13,075 nucleotides of DNA from Acidobacteriota bacterium (GTDB lineage Bacteria; Acidobacteriota; Vicinamibacteria; Fen-336): the NCBI GenBank assembly GCA_003222275.1, contig QHVJ01000096.1, forward strand, positions 1-13,075, in the 5' to 3' direction. The notes beneath the pieces are model-generated. The model had not been told where the DNA came from. It saw only the letters and a list, made by a program, of their open reading frames with translations, and ran no database searches. A program made the translations under genes and the position numbers. The stretch's first letter is position 1; every line of letters begins with the position of its first letter. Positions 2,716 to 13,075 of this stretch are shown piece after piece.

Positions 2716-4080
2716 TTAAGGCCGGATCACGGTCCCGTCGCGCCGCCGCGTACGGCCCCAGTCATAGTCGAAGTGCGGCGGGCCGGGGGGGAAGGGATAC
2801 CTCGCCGCCGCTTTCTCGTCCACGTCGATGCCGAGCCCCGGAGCCTCGCTCGCCCACAGGGCGCCGTCCCTGACCTCGGGGCAGCCGGGAAACACCTCCC
2901 GCGTCTTCCCTCCGAACCCCGAGCCCTCGTGAATGCCGAAGTTGTGGCTGGCCAGCTCGAGAGCGAGCTGTGCGGCGTGGCCGACGGGCGAGGTGTCGCC
3001 GGGCCCGTGCCAGGCCGTGCGCACGCCGAAGAACTCGCAGAGCGCCCCCAGCTTCCGCGCCATGCTCAAGCCGCCGATCTGCGACACGTGGGCGCGGATG
3101 AAGTCGATGAGGCGGCCGGTCACGAGTGGCACGTACTCGTGCTGGGTGTTGAACAGCTCCCCCATGGCGATGGGCACGCTCGTCTGCTGGCGCAGGATCC
3201 GGAAGTGCTCGTTCTGCTCGGGCGGCAGGGGGTCCTCGATGAAATAGGGACGGTAGCGCTCCAGCTCCTTGCACACCTGCACCGCCTCGGGAAGAGTCAC
3301 CCGCTCGTGCATGTCGTGCAGCAGCTCGACCTCGTCGCCCAGCGCGCCGCGGACGTGCTCGAACAGCTTCGGCAGCAGTCGCACGTACGGCCCCGACTCC
3401 CAGACGCGGGTGGGGTGCGTTGGCCCGTCCAGCTCGCCCTCAGGCGCGCTGGCGCCGCGGACGCCGTAGGTCGCCACGCCCGGAACCGCGACCTGGATGC
3501 GCACGTGGCGGTAGCCCTGCTCGACGGCCCGCCGGGCCTGGTCCGTCACCTCCTGGAAGTCGCGCCCGCTGGCGTGGAAGTAGAGGTCCGCGGCCATCCG
3601 GACCTTGCCTCCGAGGAGCTGGTAGACGGGCATGTTGGCGCGCTTGCCCTTGATGTCCCATAGCGCCTGGTCCACGCCGCTCATCGCGTTGAAGAGGACG
3701 GGCCCGTTCCGCCAGTAGGAGCTGACGTAGGAGGACTGCCAGATGTCCTCGATCTCGTCGGCGTTGCGGCCGAGGAGGAAGGGCTTGAGGTACTGCTCGA
3801 CCGCGGTCTGGACGACGTACGCGCGCTGGGTGAACGTCGCACAACCCAGGCCGTAGAGGCCCGGCTCGCTGGTCGTCACCTTCACCACCACCAGCCGGAT
3901 CCCATCGGGGGCGGTGAGGATCGTCTTGACGTCGGTGATCTTCACCGGCGGGAGGCCCCGGCGCGCGGGGACCGCCTCCTGGGGGAGGACGGAAGCCGAG
4001 AGCCTTCGGGGCGACAAGGCCGCGGCCGCACCAGCCACCGTCCCCCGCGATATCCACTGCAGGACGTCACGCCGATCCAT
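2716..4080 (-). CDS. enolase-superfamily protein of the D-mannonate dehydratase (ManD)/RspA/D-galactonate-dehydratase family, with an N-terminal Tat-like signal
   Basis: 'VKITDVKTILTAPDGIRLVVVKVTTSEPGLYGLGCATFTQRAYVV...IEDIWQSSYVSSYWRNGPVLFNAMSGVDQALWDIKGKRANMPVYQLLGG' closely follows the ManD family N-terminal and barrel pattern. The N-terminus is 'MDRRDVLQWISRGTVAGAAAAL'. A strong SD (GGGGGAGG) lies 7 nt upstream of the ATG at 4080. Confidence 0.85.
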   Translation of the reverse strand: MDRRDVLQWISRGTVAGAAAALSPRRLSASVLPQEAVPARRGLPPVKITDVKTILTAPDGIRLVVVKVTTSEPGLYGLGCATFTQRAYVVQTAVEQYLKPFLLGRNADEIEDIWQSSYVSSYWRNGPVLFNAMSGVDQALWDIKGKRANMPVYQLLGGKVRMAADLYFHASGRDFQEVTDQARRAVEQGYRHVRIQVAVPGVATYGVRGASAPEGELDGPTHPTRVWESGPYVRLLPKLFEHVRGALGDEVELLHDMHERVTLPEAVQVCKELERYRPYFIEDPLPPEQNEHFRILRQQTSVPIAMGELFNTQHEYVPLVTGRLIDFIRAHVSQIGGLSMARKLGALCEFFGVRTAWHGPGDTSPVGHAAQLALELASHNFGIHEGSGFGGKTREVFPGCPEVRDGALWASEAPGLGIDVDEKAAARYPFPPGPPHFDYDWGRTRRRDGTVIRP

Positions 4081-4858: not shown

Positions 4859-5146
4859 ATGAGGGCTGTAGGTGTTCGTGAGCTGAAGAACCGTCTGAGC
4901 GAGTATCTCCGCCTGGTGCGGAGCGGGGAGGAGATCCTCGTTACGGACCGCGGTGAGGTGATCGCGGAGTTGCGTCAGCCTATTCCACGCGTCGCACTGC
5001 TCTACCCGGCGCTGCTCGAGGCCTTTCGGCAAGGGCGGGCCCGGGTGGGACTACCCAACCGTCCCGGTCTGTATCCCACCCTGGGTCCCGTGATGCCGCC
5101 CGGCTCGGCGGCCAAGCTCCTCTATGAGGAGCGAGGCGAGCGCTGA
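4859..5146 (+). CDS. Phd/YefM (prevent-host-death)-family type II antitoxin, with a C-terminal extension; no toxin gene follows it
   Basis: The N-terminus 'MRAVGVRELKNRLSEYLRLVRSGEEILVTDRGEVIAELRQP' is the classic Phd/YefM pattern (..ELKN.LSE.L..V..GE...VT..G...A.L). Codon usage has lower GC than neighbouring genes. The downstream 131 bp contains no PIN/RelE-like ORF. Confidence 0.7.
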   Translation: MRAVGVRELKNRLSEYLRLVRSGEEILVTDRGEVIAELRQPIPRVALLYPALLEAFRQGRARVGLPNRPGLYPTLGPVMPPGSAAKLLYEERGER

Positions 5147-5277: not shown

Positions 5278-6642
5278 ATGAATTTCAGCAAGAGACAGTT
5301 CATCAAGCGATGCGCGGCGATCCTGGGCGGATCAGCCATGTCACGCATGTTTGGTAGCGCATCAGTCGGCGCGACGTCGGAGAGCGCGCTTGCCAATTGG
5401 GCCGGCAATTACCGGTACAGTACCGACCGTCTGTACCGTGCCAGATCGCTGGAACAAGTTCAGGAGTTCGTCAAGCAGCACCGTCAACTAAAGGTCCTCG
5501 GCACGCGTCATTGCTTCAACGGGATCGCCGACAGCACCCACGATCTCCTCTCCCTCAGGGAGATGGATCAGGTGGTCGCGCTGGACCAGGGATCACGGAC
5601 GGTGACCGTCGAAGCGGGCATGAGCTATGGTCAGTTGTGCCCCTATCTCGATGAGAAGGGCTTTGCCCTGCACAACCTCGCCTCCTTGCCCCATATCTCC
5701 ATTGCGGGAGCGTGCGCCACGGCAACGCATGGCTCGGGCGTCAAGAATGGAAACCTGGCCACAGCAGTTTCCGCCATGGAGATCGTCACCGCTGGCGGCG
5801 AGGTGCTCAAGCTTTCCCGCGATACGGACGGCAGCACGTTTCAGGGGAGCGTCGTCAATCTCGGTGCTCTGGGCGTGGTCACCAAGGTGACGCTGGACGT
5901 TCAGCCCGCCTTCCTGATGCGCCAGGACGTCTATCTGAACCTCCCGACGGCGCAAGTAAAGGACCATTTCGAGGACATCGCTTCCGCCGGCTATAGCGTG
6001 AGCCTCTTCACCGATTGGCAGAAGGGGCGGATGAACGAAGTCTGGATAAAGCGTCGCGTCGACAAGGGGGTGACCCTGGCCGCCAAGCCGGAGTTCTATG
6101 GGGCAACACTCGCCACCAGGAACCTCCACCCGATCGTCGAGCTCTCCGCGGAAAACTGTACGGAACAGATGGGTGTCCCTGGCCCGTGGTATGAGCGATT
6201 GCCTCACTTCCGCATGGGTTTCACGCCAAGCAGCGGGAAGGAGTTGCAGTCCGAGTACTTCGTTCCCCGCCGGAACGCCGTCGAAGCCATTCTCGCGGTC
6301 GAGCGATTGCGCGACCACGTGAGCCCTCACTTGATGATTTCAGAACTGCGCACGATCGATGCGGACCAGCTGTGGATGAGTCCCTGTTACAACCAGCCCA
6401 GTCTCGCCATCCACTTCACGTGGAAACAGGACTGGGAGTCGGTCAGGAAGGTGCTACCGATGATCGAACGGGAACTGGCGCCCTTCAAGGTCCGACCGCA
6501 CTGGGGAAAGTTGTTCACGCTGGCCCCCGCGCAACTGCAACTGCGCTACGAGAGGTGTGGCGAATTCAAGCGGCTGGTGAAGCAGTATGACCCGCAGGAT
6601 AAGTTCCGCAACGAGTTCCTGGCCGCGAATCTCTACAGCTGA
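5278..6642 (+). CDS. FAD-linked oxidase of the vanillyl-alcohol-oxidase fold, D-arabinono-1,4-lactone oxidase/L-gulonolactone oxidase/alditol-oxidase subfamily, with a Tat-like (KR-variant) signal
   Basis: 'NWAGNYRYSTDRLYRARSLEQVQEFV...LKVLGTRHCFNGIADS' matches the FAD_binding_4 N-terminus of GULO/ALO/xylitol oxidases. The C-terminal 'HWGK' ALO-domain motif is present. The N-terminus is 'MNFSKRQFIKRCAAILGGSAMS...ALA'. AGGAGG sits upstream. GC content and codon usage (AGA, AAT, TTC) are clearly below the window average. Confidence 0.88.
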   Translation: MNFSKRQFIKRCAAILGGSAMSRMFGSASVGATSESALANWAGNYRYSTDRLYRARSLEQVQEFVKQHRQLKVLGTRHCFNGIADSTHDLLSLREMDQVVALDQGSRTVTVEAGMSYGQLCPYLDEKGFALHNLASLPHISIAGACATATHGSGVKNGNLATAVSAMEIVTAGGEVLKLSRDTDGSTFQGSVVNLGALGVVTKVTLDVQPAFLMRQDVYLNLPTAQVKDHFEDIASAGYSVSLFTDWQKGRMNEVWIKRRVDKGVTLAAKPEFYGATLATRNLHPIVELSAENCTEQMGVPGPWYERLPHFRMGFTPSSGKELQSEYFVPRRNAVEAILAVERLRDHVSPHLMISELRTIDADQLWMSPCYNQPSLAIHFTWKQDWESVRKVLPMIERELAPFKVRPHWGKLFTLAPAQLQLRYERCGEFKRLVKQYDPQDKFRNEFLAANLYS

Positions 6643-8108: not shown

Positions 8109-8154
8109 CGGGAGTCGCTGATGTTCTTTCAGCGTGTCCGTGGTCGAGGTGTCG

Positions 8155-8650
8155 ATGCCGACGGTGAAGCTGACCGCTCGCACGGTCGAAGCTGCGCGTC
8201 CGCCTAGGTCGGGTCGCCTCGAACTGTCCGACGTTGACCTCCCAGGCTTCTGCATTCGCATTACACGCAACGATCGACGCACGGCCTGTCTTCTACCGTG
8301 TCGGTTCGCGATTGCGCCGTGCGACGCTCGGCACGCTTCCACCGCCTGGCGGATGCTCGTCAGCTCGCGCGCGAGGCGCTCCGCGATGCTGCGCTCGGGT
8401 ACGATCCCGCCTCGGCTAAACGCGAGGCTCGCGAAGCGTTGACGGTCGCTGTCCTGGTCAGGGACTACATCGAAGCCGATTCGGGTCGTCGCAGTTCCGC
8501 CACTAACGGCGACTACCGACGCACACTCAAGGCGGTCGTCGAGAGGTCACCCATCGGGCAGCAAGCGGCCGCTCAGGTGGCCCGCGGCGAGCTACGCGCC
8601 TTCCTTGAAGGCACTGCCCGCAAGACTCCGATCCGGGCAAATCGCGTCCG
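8155..8650 (+). pseudogene. int: tyrosine integrase (P4-like, DUF4102 arm-binding N-terminus) that is frameshifted and truncated, leaving only the N-terminal ~160 aa in two frames
   Basis: The first frame gives 'MPTVKLTARTVEAARPPRSGRLELSDVDLPGFCIRITRNDRRT' (DUF4102 pattern). Near 8280-8330 it shifts to a second frame giving 'LADARQLAREALRDAALGYDPASAKREAREA...YRRTLKAVVERSPIGQQAAAQVARGELRAFLEGTARKTPIRANRVRQ' (integrase SAM-like N-domain). No catalytic domain (R..HxxR..Y) follows. Confidence 0.7.
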
Positions 8651-8909
8651 GCAGCCGAAGCCATGCCCGCTGCGTGACGAGTCCAACATTGCGAGCCGCC
8701 AAGTCGTAGAGAGGACCTCGAAAGCCCTTCCATCGGACACCTTCCAGCAGAAAGACCCTGAAGCGCCGAAAGTCCTCCGAGAGGGCCTCGTAGAAAGCAG
8801 CCGAGCCGATATGGAACATCGGATAGAGCGTGATCCGCAGATCGTGGTCCGGATGGCGCATCGCCGTACGGCCGACGGCCGCGAGGTCGCCTCGCACGAA
8901 CTCGACCAT
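8592..8909 (-). CDS. hypothetical protein or fragment (105 aa), with weak resemblance to the TraB/GumN/Tiki superfamily N-terminus
   Basis: 'DLRITLYPMFHIGSAAFYEALSEDFRRFRVFLLEGV' resembles the GxxH...E motifs of that superfamily. It is far shorter than family members and lies in the lower-GC accessory region. Confidence 0.3.
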   Translation of the reverse strand: MVEFVRGDLAAVGRTAMRHPDHDLRITLYPMFHIGSAAFYEALSEDFRRFRVFLLEGVRWKGFRGPLYDLAARNVGLVTQRAWLRLPDAICPDRSLAGSAFKEGA

Positions 8910-8912
8910 TGC

Positions 8913-9107
8913 CTAGACCCTTCGGCGTCCGACTCCTGCGTGCTGGCTGCCCTCGTGAGCTCGACGCCGACGGCCATCCACCAACCGCAGTCGGGTTTCG
9001 ATGTCGGCGGTCTCCTCAGTCGACAGGCCAAGAAAGTCCTGCGTCGTCCCGAACCACCAACCCCGCCTTTCGAGCCTCTTTTTCTTCGCCCTATGCATCC
9101 TTGCCAT
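8913..9107 (-). CDS. hypothetical small basic protein (64 aa)
   Basis: The ORF lies immediately upstream of the 8592-8909 ORF on the same strand, with a 3-nt gap. 'WFGTTQDFLGLSTEETADIETRLRLV' is non-repetitive and possibly HTH-like. There is no confident family match. Confidence 0.3.
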   Translation of the reverse strand: MARMHRAKKKRLERRGWWFGTTQDFLGLSTEETADIETRLRLVDGRRRRAHEGSQHAGVGRRRV

Positions 9108-9206
9108 CCCTCTCGTCGGCTTCGGCGGTCCTTCGCGCCCGCTCTCTGCGCTGCAACGTTCGCTTACATTACCACCGTGCCGGTACGCGTTAGAGGCTAC
9201 TGAATC

Positions 9207-11219: not shown

Positions 11220-11291
11220 AGTTGGCACAGGAGTCGAACCTGTGACAGCCGAGTTTCGAGCTCGGTGCTCTATCCACTGAGCTAACCCTGA
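11220..11291 (-). tRNA. tRNA-like pseudogene with a canonical D-arm, an anticodon arm (loop CTCGAAA, anticodon CGA) and a T-arm, but a non-pairing acceptor stem (5' TCAGGGT vs 3' GCCAACT) and no encoded CCA
   Basis: On the minus strand the D-arm is 'TAGCTCAGTGGATAGAGCA'. The anticodon arm is CCGAG-CTCGAAA-CTCGG. The T-arm is ACAGG-TTCGACT-CCTGT. The anticodon CGA combined with a short variable loop does not fit any standard isoacceptor. Confidence 0.45.
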
Positions 11292-11414
11292 CACCTCCCT
11301 TCGTTAGAACCCGTGCGCGGAACGCGCGCCGCCGATCACAAGGTGAGGCGACGCGCACCGCCGGCCCGGGGGTATCAGCCCTTTCGCGGCCTCGTGGCCG
11401 CCTGAACTCCAAAA

Positions 11415-11488
11415 TGGAGGTAGGTCGGGGAGTCGAACCCCGCTAACTGGCTTTGCAGGCCAGCGCCTGACCGCTCGGCCAACCCACC
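11415..11488 (-). tRNA. tRNA-Cys(GCA)
   Basis: The acceptor is GGTGGGT/ACCTACC (one G-U pair). The anticodon arm is CTGGC-CTGCAAA-GCCAG. The T-arm is CGGGG-TTCGACT-CCCCG. Discriminator T and CCA are encoded. Length is 74 nt. Confidence 0.85.
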
Positions 11489-11943
11489 GGCAACTTCCGC
11501 TGCATGCGAACCACGTGGTCCGCTGCGTGCGAGGCGGCCCAGCTCTCCGGCTTGATCAGCGCCTTGAAGCCCTGGCCGACCACGAGGCCGACGAGCTCCT
11601 TGACGTAGGCGCTGCTCTTGTGAGCCACGACGGGGTTGGCGTCGATGTGCACCGTCAGCTCCCCCTTTACGATCGGCGAGAAGTGGAGTCCGAGGTCCAC
11701 CGACTTCCAGACCTCCTTCAGGAGCCGCTCGCGCAGGGAGGTGATCCGCGGCACTGTCTCCTTGCGATACGCGACGCGACCGCCCTTCCTCGGCGTGAGG
11801 ATCACCACAACCGTCACGAACTGGGTCAGGCGCCCCGTCTGGAGAGAGTCCGTCCCGACGTGGACCGCCTGGCCGTCCCTGGTGGCATCGCTGACAAACT
11901 GGAGGATGTCGGGGATCTTGACCTCATTCAGCGTCTTCCACAT
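11443..11943 (-). CDS. YkuK/DUF458-family RNase-H-like protein; its 3' end overlaps tRNA-Cys by ~46 nt
   Basis: 'VHVGTDSLQTGRLTQFVTVVVILTPRKGG...LTVHIDANP...ALIKPESWAASHAADHVVR' follows the YkuK pattern (..GTDSQ...FVTVIVI). The last ~15 codons are encoded by the tRNA-Cys gene. Confidence 0.65.
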   Translation of the reverse strand: MWKTLNEVKIPDILQFVSDATRDGQAVHVGTDSLQTGRLTQFVTVVVILTPRKGGRVAYRKETVPRITSLRERLLKEVWKSVDLGLHFSPIVKGELTVHIDANPVVAHKSSAYVKELVGLVVGQGFKALIKPESWAASHAADHVVRMQRKLPVGWPSGQALACKAS

Positions 11944-11954
11944 CGTGACCTCGC

Positions 11955-12330
11955 TAGAGAATGGAGGAGGGCCCCGTAGCGATCGCGCAGCGATCGCGAT
12001 TGATCAGGGGCGCCGAATTCAATTCGGCGCCCCGGAAGCCTCGAACCCTGTCGACTGGTTTTCGGGACCAGTCTCTATCCGACAGAATGCCCTCCTGAAA
12101 TTGGCGGAGAGGGCCTTAGCGATCGCGAAGCGATCGCGATTGATGAGGGGCGCCGAATTCAATTCGGCGCCCCGGAAGCCTCGAACCCTGTCGACTGGTT
12201 TTCGGGACCAGTCTCTATCCGACAGAATGCCCTCCTGAAATTGGCGGAGAGGGCCTTAGCGATCGCGAAGCGATCGCGATTGATGAGGAGCGCCGAATTC
12301 ATTTCGGTGCTCGGAAGATTCGAACTCTCG
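11955..12330. repeat. 140-bp tandem repeat, ~2.6 copies; unit starts fall at 11978, 12118 and 12258, and the third copy diverges
   Basis: Each unit contains 'agcgatcgcgNagcgatcgcgattgat' (two GCGATCGC palindromes). It then has a perfect 13-bp-stem hairpin 'ggggcgccgaattcaattcggcgcccc'. It ends with tRNA-like sequence (GGATAGAG, the stem-loop GACTGGT-CCCGAAA-ACCAGTC, GGGTTCGAGG). Copies 1 and 2 are nearly identical. Confidence 0.85.
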
Positions 12331-12395
12331 TGGCCGGATGGCCTCGGCACATTAGCGGTGTGCTGGGCTCCCCACTCGCCCTTTCCTCTCCGTGA

Positions 12396-12470
12396 TGGTG
12401 GCCGACCAGGGACTCGAACCCTGAAGGTCCCGCTTAGAAGGCGGGGAAGCGTCCATCGCTCGCGTCGGCC
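12396..12470 (-). tRNA. tRNA-Arg(TCT)
   Basis: The acceptor is GGCCGAC/GTCGGCC. The anticodon arm is CCCGC-CTTCTAA-GCGGG. The T-arm is CAGGG-TTCGAGT-CCCTG. Discriminator A and CCA are encoded. Positions 8-9 are GC (unusual) and the D-stem has one G-U pair. Confidence 0.7.
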
Positions 12471-12472
12471 AA

Positions 12473-12560
12473 TGGTCCCCGCTGGAGGAGTTCAACCTCC
12501 GTCTCTCCGTCCGGTCCTCCTGCTTACGGGCAGGTGTGCTGCCAGTAACACGTCATCGAC
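12473..12560 (-). tRNA. long-variable-arm tRNA-like pseudogene (Tyr GTA-like anticodon region, 6-nt anticodon loop, no pairing 5' acceptor)
   Basis: The T-arm is GGAGG-TTGAACT-CCTCC, followed by AGCGGGG-A-CCA. The stem is CCTGC/GCAGG with loop CCGTAA. The 5' end (GTCGATG) cannot pair with the 3' acceptor. Confidence 0.3.
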
Positions 12561-12561
12561 T

Positions 12562-12635
12562 TGGTCCAGGCTCGAGGACTCGAACCTCGATTCTCCGGTA
12601 ATCGGCCGGAAGTCCTGCCGTTGGACGAAGCCTGG
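12562..12635 (-). tRNA. tRNA with a full cloverleaf and an atypical anticodon loop CCGATTA (anticodon GAT, C33, U37); Ile(GAT)-like or atypical
   Basis: The acceptor is CCAGGCT/AGCCTGG. The D-arm is GTCC-AACGGCA-GGAC. The anticodon stem is TCCGG/CCGGA. The T-arm is CGAGG-TTCGAGT-CCTCG. Discriminator A and CCA are encoded. Confidence 0.5.
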
Positions 12636-12637
12636 AT

Positions 12638-12712
12638 TGGTGCCAGCGGTGGGAGTCGAACCCACCTCGTCCCGATCAAAAGGCGGGCACGCGGCCGCTG
12701 CGTCACGCTGGC
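12638..12712 (-). tRNA. tRNA-Lys(TTT)-like with a C31-U39 mismatch in the anticodon stem and G37; a TTG reading is possible if the loop is taken as 9 nt
   Basis: The acceptor is GCCAGCG/CGCTGGC. The D-stem is ACGC/GCGT. The anticodon region is CCCGC-CTTTTGA-TCGGG. The T-arm is GTGGG-TTCGACT-CCCAC. Discriminator A and CCA are encoded. Confidence 0.5.
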
Positions 12713-12720
12713 AATGAAGC

Positions 12721-12859
12721 TGGCTGTAGGGCCGGGATTCGAACCCGGATCTTTCGGAGCGTCCGAAGTGAATTCGTCCGCTCCTCATCAATCACGATCG
12801 CTTCGCGATCGTTAGGGCCGGTTAACAGCCGGACTTGTTGCCGTTGCCACCACCCTACA
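12721..12859 (-). tRNA. 139-nt tRNA-Asn(GTT)-like gene with a ~65-nt insertion (GCGATCGC palindromes plus a 29-nt hairpin) at the variable-loop position
   Basis: On the minus strand the 5' acceptor TGTAGGG pairs 7/7 with the 3' acceptor CCCTACA, followed by G and CCA. The anticodon loop is CTGTTAA (the canonical Asn loop). The T-arm is CCGGG-TTCGAAT-CCCGG. The D-stem is imperfect. The inserted module is an inverted copy of the module in the 140-bp tandem repeats. Confidence 0.5.
12756..12815. repeat. inverted copy of the hairpin + GCGATCGC module (hairpin 12756-12784 'ggagcgtccgaagtgaattcgtccgctcc'; palindrome part 12785-12815); it lies inside the Asn-like tRNA gene
   Basis: The reverse complement of 12749-12825 aligns with the start of repeat copy 3 (12247-12320), including 'gatgaggagcg.cgaattca.ttcgg'. 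Confidence 0.7.
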
Positions 12860-12878
12860 AGCGCACGACCTGTGAGGC

Positions 12879-13016
12879 TGGCTGGCAGACGTGGATTCGC
12901 TGTCTCGACGCTCTGCGGAGCGGAGCGTCGAGGCACGGCGGATCACGCGGAGCGTGATCGCCCACCACGATTGGCGGGTTCAGAGCCCGCGGTCCTGCCG
13001 TTGGACGATCTGCCAA
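12879..13016 (-). tRNA. 138-nt tRNA-Gln(CTG)-like gene with a ~65-nt insertion (two hairpins, 12904-12931 and 12941-12959) in the variable region and a degenerate T-arm
   Basis: On the minus strand the 5' acceptor TGGCAGA pairs 7/7 with TCTGCCA, followed by G and CCA (U1-A72 and G73 are typical of Gln). The D-arm is GTCC-AACGGCA-GGAC. The anticodon arm is GCGGG-CTCTGAA-CCCGC, a canonical loop. The T-loop region is AGCGAAT, with CGAAT conserved but no pairing stem. Confidence 0.45.
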
Positions 13017-13075
13017 TGGTCGGGTCGGGAGGAGTCGAACCTCCATGCACCTGCGCCCGAGGCAGGTGGGCTACC
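13017..13075 (-). tRNA. tRNA-Pro(CGG), 3' portion; the 5' part lies beyond the window end
   Basis: On the minus strand the anticodon arm is CCTGC-CTCGGGC-GCAGG (anticodon CGG, G37). The T-arm is GGAGG-TTCGACT-CCTCC. The acceptor 3' strand is CGACCCG, followed by A and CCA. Confidence 0.7.

Follow-up and report, generated by a model that had tools for sequence, protein, structure and literature searches.

Can a bacterial tRNA gene carry a structured insert of some 63 nt outside its anticodon loop, and how would such an insert have come to be there? The question is raised by contig QHVJ01000096.1 (assembly GCA_003222275.1), which NCBI labels as the metagenome-assembled genome (MAG) of an Acidobacteria bacterium. 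Near one end of the 13,075 nt analyzed here (the window) lie two tRNA-like elements that an initial annotation, made from the letters alone, had described as genes of 139 and 138 nt with an insertion at the variable-loop position. The two elements are real tRNA-Asn and tRNA-Gln genes of a mobile tRNA cluster in a soil bacterium, each with a two-hairpin insert of about 63 nt. The reading that we prefer, at a probability of roughly two in three, is that the inserts are small non-autonomous DNA insertion modules that colonize the redundant tRNA genes of a mobile array and probably inactivate them. The genes and their inserts are placed as follows:

12721..12859, minus strand: tRNA-Asn(GUU), 76-nt body with encoded CCA, interrupted by an insert called module 1, 139 nt in total (from alignment to intact orthologues).
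12755..12817, minus strand: the module 1 insert in Asn, 63 nt between tRNA nucleotides 42 and 43, with a boundary ambiguous by 1 nt (one G).
12879..13015, minus strand: tRNA-Gln(CUG), 74-nt body with encoded CCA, interrupted in the T-loop, 137 nt in total (from alignment to intact orthologues).
12900..12963, minus strand: the insert in Gln, called module 2, 64 nt replacing U55 (from alignment to intact Gln genes).

A direct reading of the sequence bears out both elements on the minus strand, with all 7 of 7 acceptor pairs formed (Asn TGTAGGG/CCCTACA, Gln TGGCAGA/TCTGCCA, both with a discriminator G) and with canonical anticodon loops (CTGTTAA in Asn, CTCTGAA in Gln). The T-arm of Asn and the D-arm of Gln are perfect. 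The length of 139 nt stands for Asn, but Gln measures 137 nt instead of 138, position 13016 being one base upstream of the gene.

What kind of locus do these genes belong to? The final ~1.9 kb of the window covers the 3′ portion of a long tRNA array with encoded CCA ("L-array") on the minus strand. Its tRNA genes all have an encoded CCA and are spaced 2-6 nt apart, in the order Pro(CGG), the Gln element, the Asn element, Lys(UUU), Ile(GAU), a degenerate tRNA, Arg(UCU) and a 140-bp tandem repeat, past which lie an RNase H-like (PF04308) open reading frame (ORF), Cys(GCA) and one further tRNA-like gene. We compared the window with public contigs, labelled L001-L036, and related arrays, soil metagenome contigs among them, were gathered through homologues of the embedded RNase H-like protein and through a scan of public contigs for a 24-nt pattern of module 1. 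The arrays of L009 (23 tRNA genes in 2.5 kb), L016 (26; an 807-kb contig) and L018 (26) have the features of an L-type array: at least 20 tRNA genes, at least 2 per kb, in one orientation, supernumerary and patchily distributed. The array order Trp...Gln-Asn-Lys-Ile-Thr...Arg-Ser-Cys is kept across contigs with differing flanking genes, phage contigs included; the same array is found in different genomic contexts and on viral contigs.

The intact orthologues settle the identity of the two genes. L009 has an uninterrupted Gln(CUG) of 74 nt and an Asn(GUU) of 76 nt (61.3 and 59.8 bits with the Rfam tRNA model) between Pro(CGG) and Lys(UUU), and L016 and L018 have intact Gln and Asn genes at the same array position. 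Because of these orthologues, the tRNA identity is not a matter of chance complementarity, a possibility that the initial annotation had kept in view. Against the 76-nt genes of L009, L016 and L018, Asn shows a single 63-nt gap at the 3′ end of the anticodon stem. For Gln, the intact orthologues in L009 and L018 likewise give an alignment with one gap, the interrupted T-loop reading CGTGG-T[64 nt]CGAAT-CCACG where the intact gene reads CGTGG-TTCGAAT-CCACG. Because this alignment puts the 64 nt at U55, the Gln insert is in the T-loop; the variable-loop position, proposed for both inserts, fits Asn, at the junction of anticodon stem and variable loop (nucleotides 42/43), and is wrong for Gln.

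Standard tools do not see these genes. The raw 139- and 137-nt elements give no ARAGORN call and no match to Rfam RF00005, even at E ≤ 10; a tRNA is called only after a deletion of about 63 nt, so that the covariance-model support proposed as a check is absent for the raw elements and present for their intact orthologues. In an in silico deletion scan, ARAGORN reports tRNA-Asn(gtt) in 284 variants, many of which have lost part of the variable region. It reports tRNA-Gln(ctg) in 16 variants, only with 57-68-nt deletions that start in the T-loop. Run in intron mode, ARAGORN gives Asn a spurious "Val(cac)" call whose intron is 57 nt long and gives Gln no call; this was rejected in favor of the orthologue alignments.

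Could the interruptions have been created by the assembly? The 140-bp triplication occurs only in this MAG contig, other assemblies having one unit, and this is the observation that would fit an artefact. However, the interrupted Asn and Gln alleles are base-for-base identical in an independent JGI (Joint Genome Institute) soil contig, L014, which means that the assembly did not create them; alleles that bear a module are found in at least six independent assemblies. We give next to no credence to an assembly artefact, or to chance complementarity, as the explanation.

Module 1 can be described from its many copies. Its layout is CCCTAG, hairpin A, GATTGATGAGG, hairpin B and CCGAAKG. Hairpin A is made of two 11-nt direct repeats, AGCGATCGCGA, which also pair as GCGATCGC-NNN-GCGATCGC; hairpin B is ~27 nt long and has the conserved loop GAATTCAYTTC. 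The Asn copy reads CCCTAA, hairpin A (CGATCGCG-AAG-CGATCGTG), ATTGATGAGG, hairpin B and CCG. A covariance model built from eight module 1 copies (R1) finds 14 full-length copies at 84-98 bits in ~280 kb of arrays and flanks, all in tRNA genes, one of them an untrained copy in L036; the model finds nothing comparable elsewhere in that DNA. The copies in the window are:

12746-12822, minus strand: R1 match to module 1 in Asn, 89.8 bits.
11969..12043, plus strand: module 1 copy, a few flanking bases included, 93.0 bits.
12109..12183, plus strand: module 1 copy, 98.5 bits.
12249..12323, plus strand: module 1 copy in Ser(GCU), more diverged, 88.2 bits.

The Asn insert is indeed, as had been claimed, the module of the neighboring 140-bp repeats (R1, 88-98 bits), in inverted orientation: over 41 nt the two are 90-93% complementary. 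Each repeat unit is itself a tRNA gene with module 1. Tandem Repeats Finder gives a period of 140, 2.5 copies and 95% matches, and the unit consists of a ~73-nt tRNA-Ser(CGA), a ~61-nt net insertion and a 6-nt spacer:

11962..12095, minus strand: tRNA-Ser(CGA) with antisense module 1, tandem-repeat unit 3 (intact 73-nt allele in L001).
12102..12235, minus strand: second tRNA-Ser(CGA) with module 1, tandem-repeat unit 2 (in the window only).
12242..12391, minus strand: tRNA-Ser(GCU) with module 1 at its 3′ end, a hybrid first unit (intact, 90 nt, in L001-L004, L009 and L014).

The match between the lengths of the two elements and the repeat period, pointed out in the initial annotation, is real: the lengths of 139, 138 and 140 nt coincide because each is a ~75-nt tRNA plus ~63 nt. 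The tandem repeat would have arisen by unequal recombination between module-bearing Ser genes.

The hosts of module 1 are Asn, Ala, Val, Ser-CGA and Ser-GCU. Its position in the tRNA differs among them, it occurs in either orientation, and near-identical arrays differ in whether they have it. Besides Asn, the filled and empty alleles are:

Ser(CGA): module 1 antisense, 67 nt replacing 6 nt, 3′ part of the T-loop and 3′ strand of the T-stem lost; filled in L002-L004, L014 and the window, intact in L001.
Ser(GCU): module 1 at the 3′ end of the gene; filled only in the window, intact in all other arrays checked.
Ala(UGC): module 1 in the D-loop, 62 nt replacing one T; filled in L009, L011, L014 and L036, intact in L016, L028, L031 and L032.
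Val(UAC): module 1 at nucleotides 7-11, 5-6 nt replaced; filled in L014, intact in L009 and L016.

Between filled and empty sites, 0-6 nt of target are replaced. The boundaries of the module are reused, within a few nucleotides, at four or more independent sites, with shared junctions (a colon marking the joint) CGG:CCCTAG on the left and CCGAAKG:(A/C)TCC on the right. Immediately to the left of the insert stand CCGG, ACGG, CCGG and GGCC (module 1) or GGT (module 2). Hairpins A and B are kept by compensatory change: 98.8% of alignment cells pair and 5 pairs show double-sided changes, a result that 0 of 500 shuffles attain, the alignment being model-fitted. The unpaired motifs GATTGATGAGG and the GAATTCAYTTC loop are conserved as well.

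Among the explanations first offered, it is that of tRNA genes hit by a small hairpin-bearing mobile module that agrees with these observations: empty and filled alleles, multiple copies, several positions and both orientations. For tRNA-derived elements similar to short interspersed nuclear elements (SINEs) or miniature inverted-repeat transposable elements (MITEs) there is no support: the tRNA portions are array genes that have orthologues and keep their order, and are not dispersed copies.

A tRNA with a giant extra arm had also been put forward. More generally, the genes could make functional enlarged tRNAs or tRNA-like RNAs in which the two-hairpin domain is a selected extra arm, for instance a protein-binding or regulatory one. 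Both elements are predicted to be strongly structured (z = −4.3 and −4.6), the minimum-free-energy folds keep the acceptor stem in both (the T-arm only in Asn), and the two unpaired motifs of module 1 are conserved, as would be expected of such an arm. But the position of the insert varies by tRNA (D-loop, nucleotides 7-11, 42/43, T-loop), one family is antisense, stem sequence is deleted in some copies, and intact orthologues are the rule in most arrays. The T-loop insert in Gln removes U55 and would, from textbook tRNA structure, break the D-loop/T-loop elbow. The extra arm finds no support as a designed feature, and we consider functional enlarged tRNAs very improbable. The familiar class II long variable arm, one hairpin of ~10-25 nt at nucleotides 44-48 of Leu, Ser and Tyr, was rejected too: the Asn insert has 63 nt and two hairpins, lies at 42/43 and is absent from the orthologues, and the Gln insert is in the T-loop.

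If the inserts are DNA modules, do they show the marks of transposition? Module 1 has several MITE-like traits, being short, non-coding, present in 14 copies and polymorphic for presence and absence between arrays. On the other side, terminal inverted repeats (TIRs) are absent, the left end CCCTAGCGATCG and the reverse complement of the right end CCTTCGGACGTC agreeing at ~4 of 12 positions, and the comparison of empty with filled sites gives no target-site duplications (TSDs); the usual hallmarks of transposition are therefore missing. In the window and the fetched flanks of related arrays we find no transposase, the Y1 transposase TnpA included, no RAYT and no homing endonuclease.

A further explanation is a process that is not strictly mobile, in which a single ancestral hairpin-rich segment was copied locally into adjacent tRNA genes by replication template switching or by microhomology-mediated double-strand break repair as "filler" DNA, possibly after nuclease cleavage of the tRNA genes. 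The junctions have 1-4 nt of microhomology (CCGG:...:AAAGATCC in Asn, ACGG:...:AGGATCC in Ala) with 0-6 nt of target loss and no TSDs, both orientations occur, and the copies are confined to one ~3-kb array; LigD, an enzyme of non-homologous end joining, is encoded near the related array L032. What filler does not predict is the reuse of the same module boundaries, within a few nucleotides, at four or more independent sites, or the occurrence of module 2 in different arrays, 64 nt both times, with only GGT and CGA as common flanks. Diverged copies that keep both hairpins fit a structure-selected element better than a passive filler. We hold this origin to be possible but unlikely, although it comes ahead of the other alternatives discussed here.

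Returning to mobile insertion modules, we picture small non-coding insertions, defined by their hairpins, that would spread at the DNA level among the closely packed tRNAs of the array. The spread may be driven by a hairpin-recognizing enzyme acting in trans, or by template switching during replication or repair at short homologies such as the shared left and right junction sequences of module 1; both a trans-acting hairpin enzyme and microhomology-mediated copying are compatible with the junctions. The insertions would be tolerated because the array tRNAs are supernumerary, and the affected genes have most likely been turned into pseudogenes. Marks of damage are the loss of U55 in Gln and in a Gly gene of L018 (below), the loss of the 3′ strand of the T-stem in Ser(CGA), the replacement of 5-6 nt in Val, and C25A in Asn, which breaks a G10-C25 pair present in all intact orthologues. 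The Ala gene of L036 shows decay in a U33C change and a lost CCA.

How far does module 1 extend beyond these arrays? A scan of 241 million metagenome records with the 24-nt pattern found true copies only in such tRNA arrays. Module 1 was not found in IMG/VR viral contigs or in PLSDB plasmids, and GTDB genomes gave no pattern match with the module 1 hairpin. The pattern matches in L005-L008, L010, L012, L013 and L015 were rejected as chance matches in coding DNA. The cyanobacterial repeat HIP1 was considered for GCGATCGC, which occurs 6 times in the window; because all six are inside the repeats and the contig comes from an Acidobacteria MAG, this is not a genome-wide HIP1.

The Gln insert belongs to a second family. 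It reads GG, hairpin 1 (GCGATCACGC-TCC-GCGTGATC(C)GC), CGTGC, hairpin 2 (CTCGACGCTC...GAGCGTCGAG) and ACAG. It had been described as a pair of perfect hairpins; there are two hairpins, but one of them has a single bulge. A deletion scan of the un-called gaps in other arrays found two further T-loop inserts. In tRNA-Gly(GCC) of L018 (insert 5961-6024), 64 nt again replace U55, ACGGG-T[64]CGATA-CCCGT. The Gln and Gly inserts have a common architecture: GG; a hairpin 1 with apex CACGC-TYC-GCGTG; GTGS; a hairpin 2 with base CTCGAC...GTCGAG; and RCAG. Their similarity has z = 7.0, with 0 of 500 shuffles scoring as high, and in hairpin 1 of module 2 4 of 11 pairs are changed on both sides between Gln and Gly with pairing kept. 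The third insert, in tRNA-Arg(UCU) of L016 (9626-9684), has 59 nt and two hairpins, lies between T55 and C56, and is unrelated in sequence; among module 1, module 2 and this Arg insert there is no significant sequence similarity except that of Gln with Gly.

No such inserts were seen in the arrays of L028, L031, L032 and L034. The phage-borne arrays L019-L027 likewise gave no insert of ~60 nt in the deletion scan; apart from noise, it picked up a single short D-loop hairpin, in L020. There a tRNA-Arg(CCG) in the region ~633-707 (gap 399-638) appears to carry a short extra D-loop hairpin (CTGCGAAAGCAG). BLAST with module 2 and the L016 Arg insert over ~335 kb found no further copies, and a module 2 pattern search of viral contigs found nothing. 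The recurrent use of one exact T-loop position suggests a specific, so far undescribed recognition process.

Does the process act on RNA? The array contains a candidate enzyme:

11443..11943, minus strand: RNase H-like gene (PF04308/DUF458, YkuK-type), Pfam E = 1.9e-29.

This gene lies inside the array just before tRNA-Cys and has 936 homologues, of which the best 120 are mostly 80-100% identical. It is present in the syntenic arrays of L016, L018, L028, L031, L032, L034 and L036 and on the IMG/VR contigs L019-L027, and it travels with the array across genomic contexts; among the matches listed, distant homologues are in Vibrio phages of 157-250 kb. A truncated ORF for the RNA ligase RtcB is seen at 5872-6300 of L016, ~1.2 kb upstream of the array. 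This fragment echoes a reported association, RtcB being linked to and co-regulated with cyanobacterial L-arrays (PMC8421152).

The inserts could then be RNA-level intervening sequences, transcribed and subsequently removed or cleaved by a protein enzyme, from genes that still yield working tRNAs. This could happen through cutting by a nuclease, for example RNase III or the DUF458 protein encoded inside the array, with RtcB then joining the ends. Such a route would agree with the clean 63-nt insertion in Asn, with two insert families at an identical T-loop site in three tRNAs, with the covariation of the hairpins, with a cloverleaf and acceptor stems that are preserved (down to a compensatory A-U to G-C change in the Gln acceptor stem), with the conserved nuclease-fold gene inside the array, and with RtcB near the L016 array and, as published, the cyanobacterial ones (PMC8421152). 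Against it, module 1 in Ser(CGA) is antisense and the 3′ strand of the T-stem is lost, Gln and Gly would be left without U55 and Val without 5-6 nt; with an antisense copy and lost tRNA nucleotides, simple excision therefore restores no canonical tRNA in most copies. The decay marks of Asn (C25A) and of the L036 Ala gene (U33C, lost CCA) point the same way. In 7 interrupted tRNAs, no strict hBHBh′ motif (bulge-helix-bulge, BHB) gives a tRNA on removal, and BHB motif counts are at or near the shuffled level for most (Arg of L016 has 4 against a mean of 1.08). The inserts match no Rfam family, ribozyme or intron, at the gathering threshold or at E ≤ 10. We think RNA-level removal improbable. Much the same doubt applies to its more specific form, a new bacterial or phage tRNA intervening sequence or tRNA-loop homing mini-element whose hairpins would be recognized by an array-linked enzyme (DUF458 and/or RtcB) that takes the inserts out of, or puts them into, tRNAs or their genes, protein-dependent and without BHB, with the exact T54/C56 site used by two unrelated families in Gln, Gly and Arg; it is a long shot.

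Several candidates for known RNA elements were discarded along the way. Weak Rfam matches to BjrC80, YrlA and Plastid-ycf2 fall far short of the threshold and overlap with the sequence of tRNAs or palindromes. A group I or group II intron has no catalytic core match (Rfam, E ≤ 10), and the inserts have 63-64 nt and are outside the anticodon loop. The Asn copy contains a hammerhead-like string (UGAUGAG...CGAAAG, in UUGAUGAGG-stem-CCGAAAG) that is not conserved, other copies having GAUCAG, GAAGAG, GGAAG, CAAGG or GAAUG at such places, and there is no Rfam ribozyme match.

What, then, weighs against mobile modules that inactivate their hosts? Besides the missing transposition hallmarks and enzymes given above, the bodies of the interrupted tRNAs show only a mild excess of divergence over those of intact neighbors, and Asn is less diverged. 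The Gln body retains every stem as well as the GlnRS identity set U1-A72, G2-C71, G3-C70, G10 and G73, and because of this inactivation is something that we infer. That one exact T-loop position holds three inserts which differ in sequence suggests a process more specific than random colonization.

Comparison with known systems helps to say what the modules are like, and what they are not. The small hairpin-defined elements of the IS200/IS605 type, that is, palindrome-associated transposable elements (PATEs), and the repetitive extragenic palindromes (REP/REPIN), which depend on HUH Y1 transposases, are like our modules without TIRs or TSDs, are very short and show compensatory changes. The modules share with them hairpins near both ends. 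Such elements insert 3′ of a fixed short target; the left flanks of our modules are those listed above. However, small target deletions are unexpected for that mechanism, and REPs are extragenic and number in the hundreds; in our case no TnpA or RAYT gene is seen, and the two hairpins are unlike each other. The intervening sequences of rRNA, which RNase III removes without religation, are likewise hairpin-bearing extra sequences in a loop of a stable RNA and vary between strains; they are known only from rRNA, and a fragmented tRNA is not expected to function. Group I tRNA introns also interrupt bacterial tRNA genes and are missed by standard tRNA finders, but their length is at least 200 nt, their place is the anticodon loop, and Rfam detects their catalytic core.

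Intron "transposition" between tRNA positions is known from the Thermoproteales and also from Cyanidioschyzon merolae, and involves the D-loop, the variable region and the T-loop. The non-canonical archaeal tRNA introns of the Thermoproteales resemble our modules in being near-identical short inserts at many tRNA positions (PMC4090602), whereas they have a BHB motif that is cut by EndA. Here there is no BHB and the host is a bacterium, one copy family is antisense and several copies delete tRNA sequence. Bacterial MITEs, including the Rickettsia palindromic elements in tmRNA and RNase P (M1) RNA genes, are short, non-coding, hairpin-forming and multi-copy, and can lie within conserved RNA genes, where they may be tolerated (PMC2229807). 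They differ in having 100-150 bp or more, usually with TIRs and TA or other target duplications, and in being scattered genome-wide, while our modules have 59-67 nt and no TIRs or TSDs, replace 0-6 nt, and were found only in tRNA genes of one array lineage.

The array itself conforms to the L-arrays or tRNA array units of the literature (PMC8421152, PMC4758250), with dense same-strand tRNAs, tiny spacers, protein genes in their midst and some pseudogenes; insertions, duplications and deletions are frequent in them. L-arrays are horizontally acquired and redundant and accumulate insertions, duplications, deletions and pseudogenes (PMC8421152). The two papers describe no small structured inserts in tRNA genes, and there pseudogenes are defined by absent expression. 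In the window, the array is decaying as a whole, as the tandem duplication and a Thr/Arg chimera show. The other array neighbors are:

13020..13075, minus strand: tRNA-Pro(CGG), the upstream array neighbor, truncated at the window end (Rfam 31.3 bits; complete in L014 and L009).
12638-12712, minus strand: tRNA-Lys(UUU).
12562-12635, minus strand: tRNA-Ile(GAU).
12473-12560, minus strand: chimeric remnant, Thr(CGU) 5′ part and Arg(CCU) 3′ part.
12396-12470, minus strand: tRNA-Arg(UCU).
11288-11414, minus strand: ~100-nt non-tRNA element downstream of tRNA-Cys (GGCCGGCGGYGYGCGTCGCCTCAC...GTGATCGGCGGCGCGCGTTCCGCGCACGGGTTCTA...GGAGGTGTCAG), predicted to form a long hairpin.
11223-11287, minus strand: 65-nt tRNA-like gene (Rfam 45.8 bits), with an acceptor stem symmetrically 4 bp shorter.

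The chimera is the product of a deletion that took out the Phe, Thr, Glu and Arg genes which L009, L016 and L002 still have, and the same chimera is present in L003 and L014. The 65-nt gene has no ARAGORN call in the window, and the orthologous position of L016 is called as tRNA-Phe(gaa). The ~100-nt element has no Rfam match and is conserved nearly base for base at L016 10530-10663 and L018 9105-9233 and in L032, L036, L028 and L034. A promoter or terminator role for the modules was rejected, as a search of 11900-13075 gave no sigma-70-like or intrinsic-terminator-like sites.

Related arrays hold further unusual genes. A conserved tRNA-Leu(CAA)-like gene of ~100 nt (L009 880-979, L016 ~8110-8212, L028 ~3330-3432, L036 ~100-205) has a long variable arm that resembles a second anticodon arm, with a 5-bp stem and a 7-nt loop CUUAAGA (UAA); it scores 46.6 bits in Rfam, yet is missed by ARAGORN. 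Genes for tmRNA lie within or beside phage-borne arrays (L023 2424-2800; L024/L025 2709-3012; L027 11336-11706). Elsewhere in the window, a Phd/YefM-type antitoxin ORF is found at 4859-5146 on the plus strand (Pfam E = 1.3e-07), where G+C falls from ~0.69 to ~0.62, and a weak match to an integrase arm-binding domain at 8298-9203. An integrated element may thus make up part of the window, on the side of the array.

In the literature we found no T-loop, D-loop or variable-region inserts described for bacterial tRNA genes, only group I introns of the anticodon loop, and the two-hairpin inserts are an undescribed, probably gene-inactivating kind of insertion. Since standard finders miss the interrupted genes, the tRNA counts of mobile arrays are underestimated and "gaps" in arrays are misread. 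The set of empty and filled sites, with five tRNA targets, two orientations and three sequence families, could show how tiny hairpin elements move without TIRs or TSDs. Should the RNAs prove to be turned back into working tRNAs, the inserts would be the first bacterial tRNA intervening sequences whose removal depends on protein; if they are not, the locus is an example of how redundant, horizontally acquired tRNA arrays decay.

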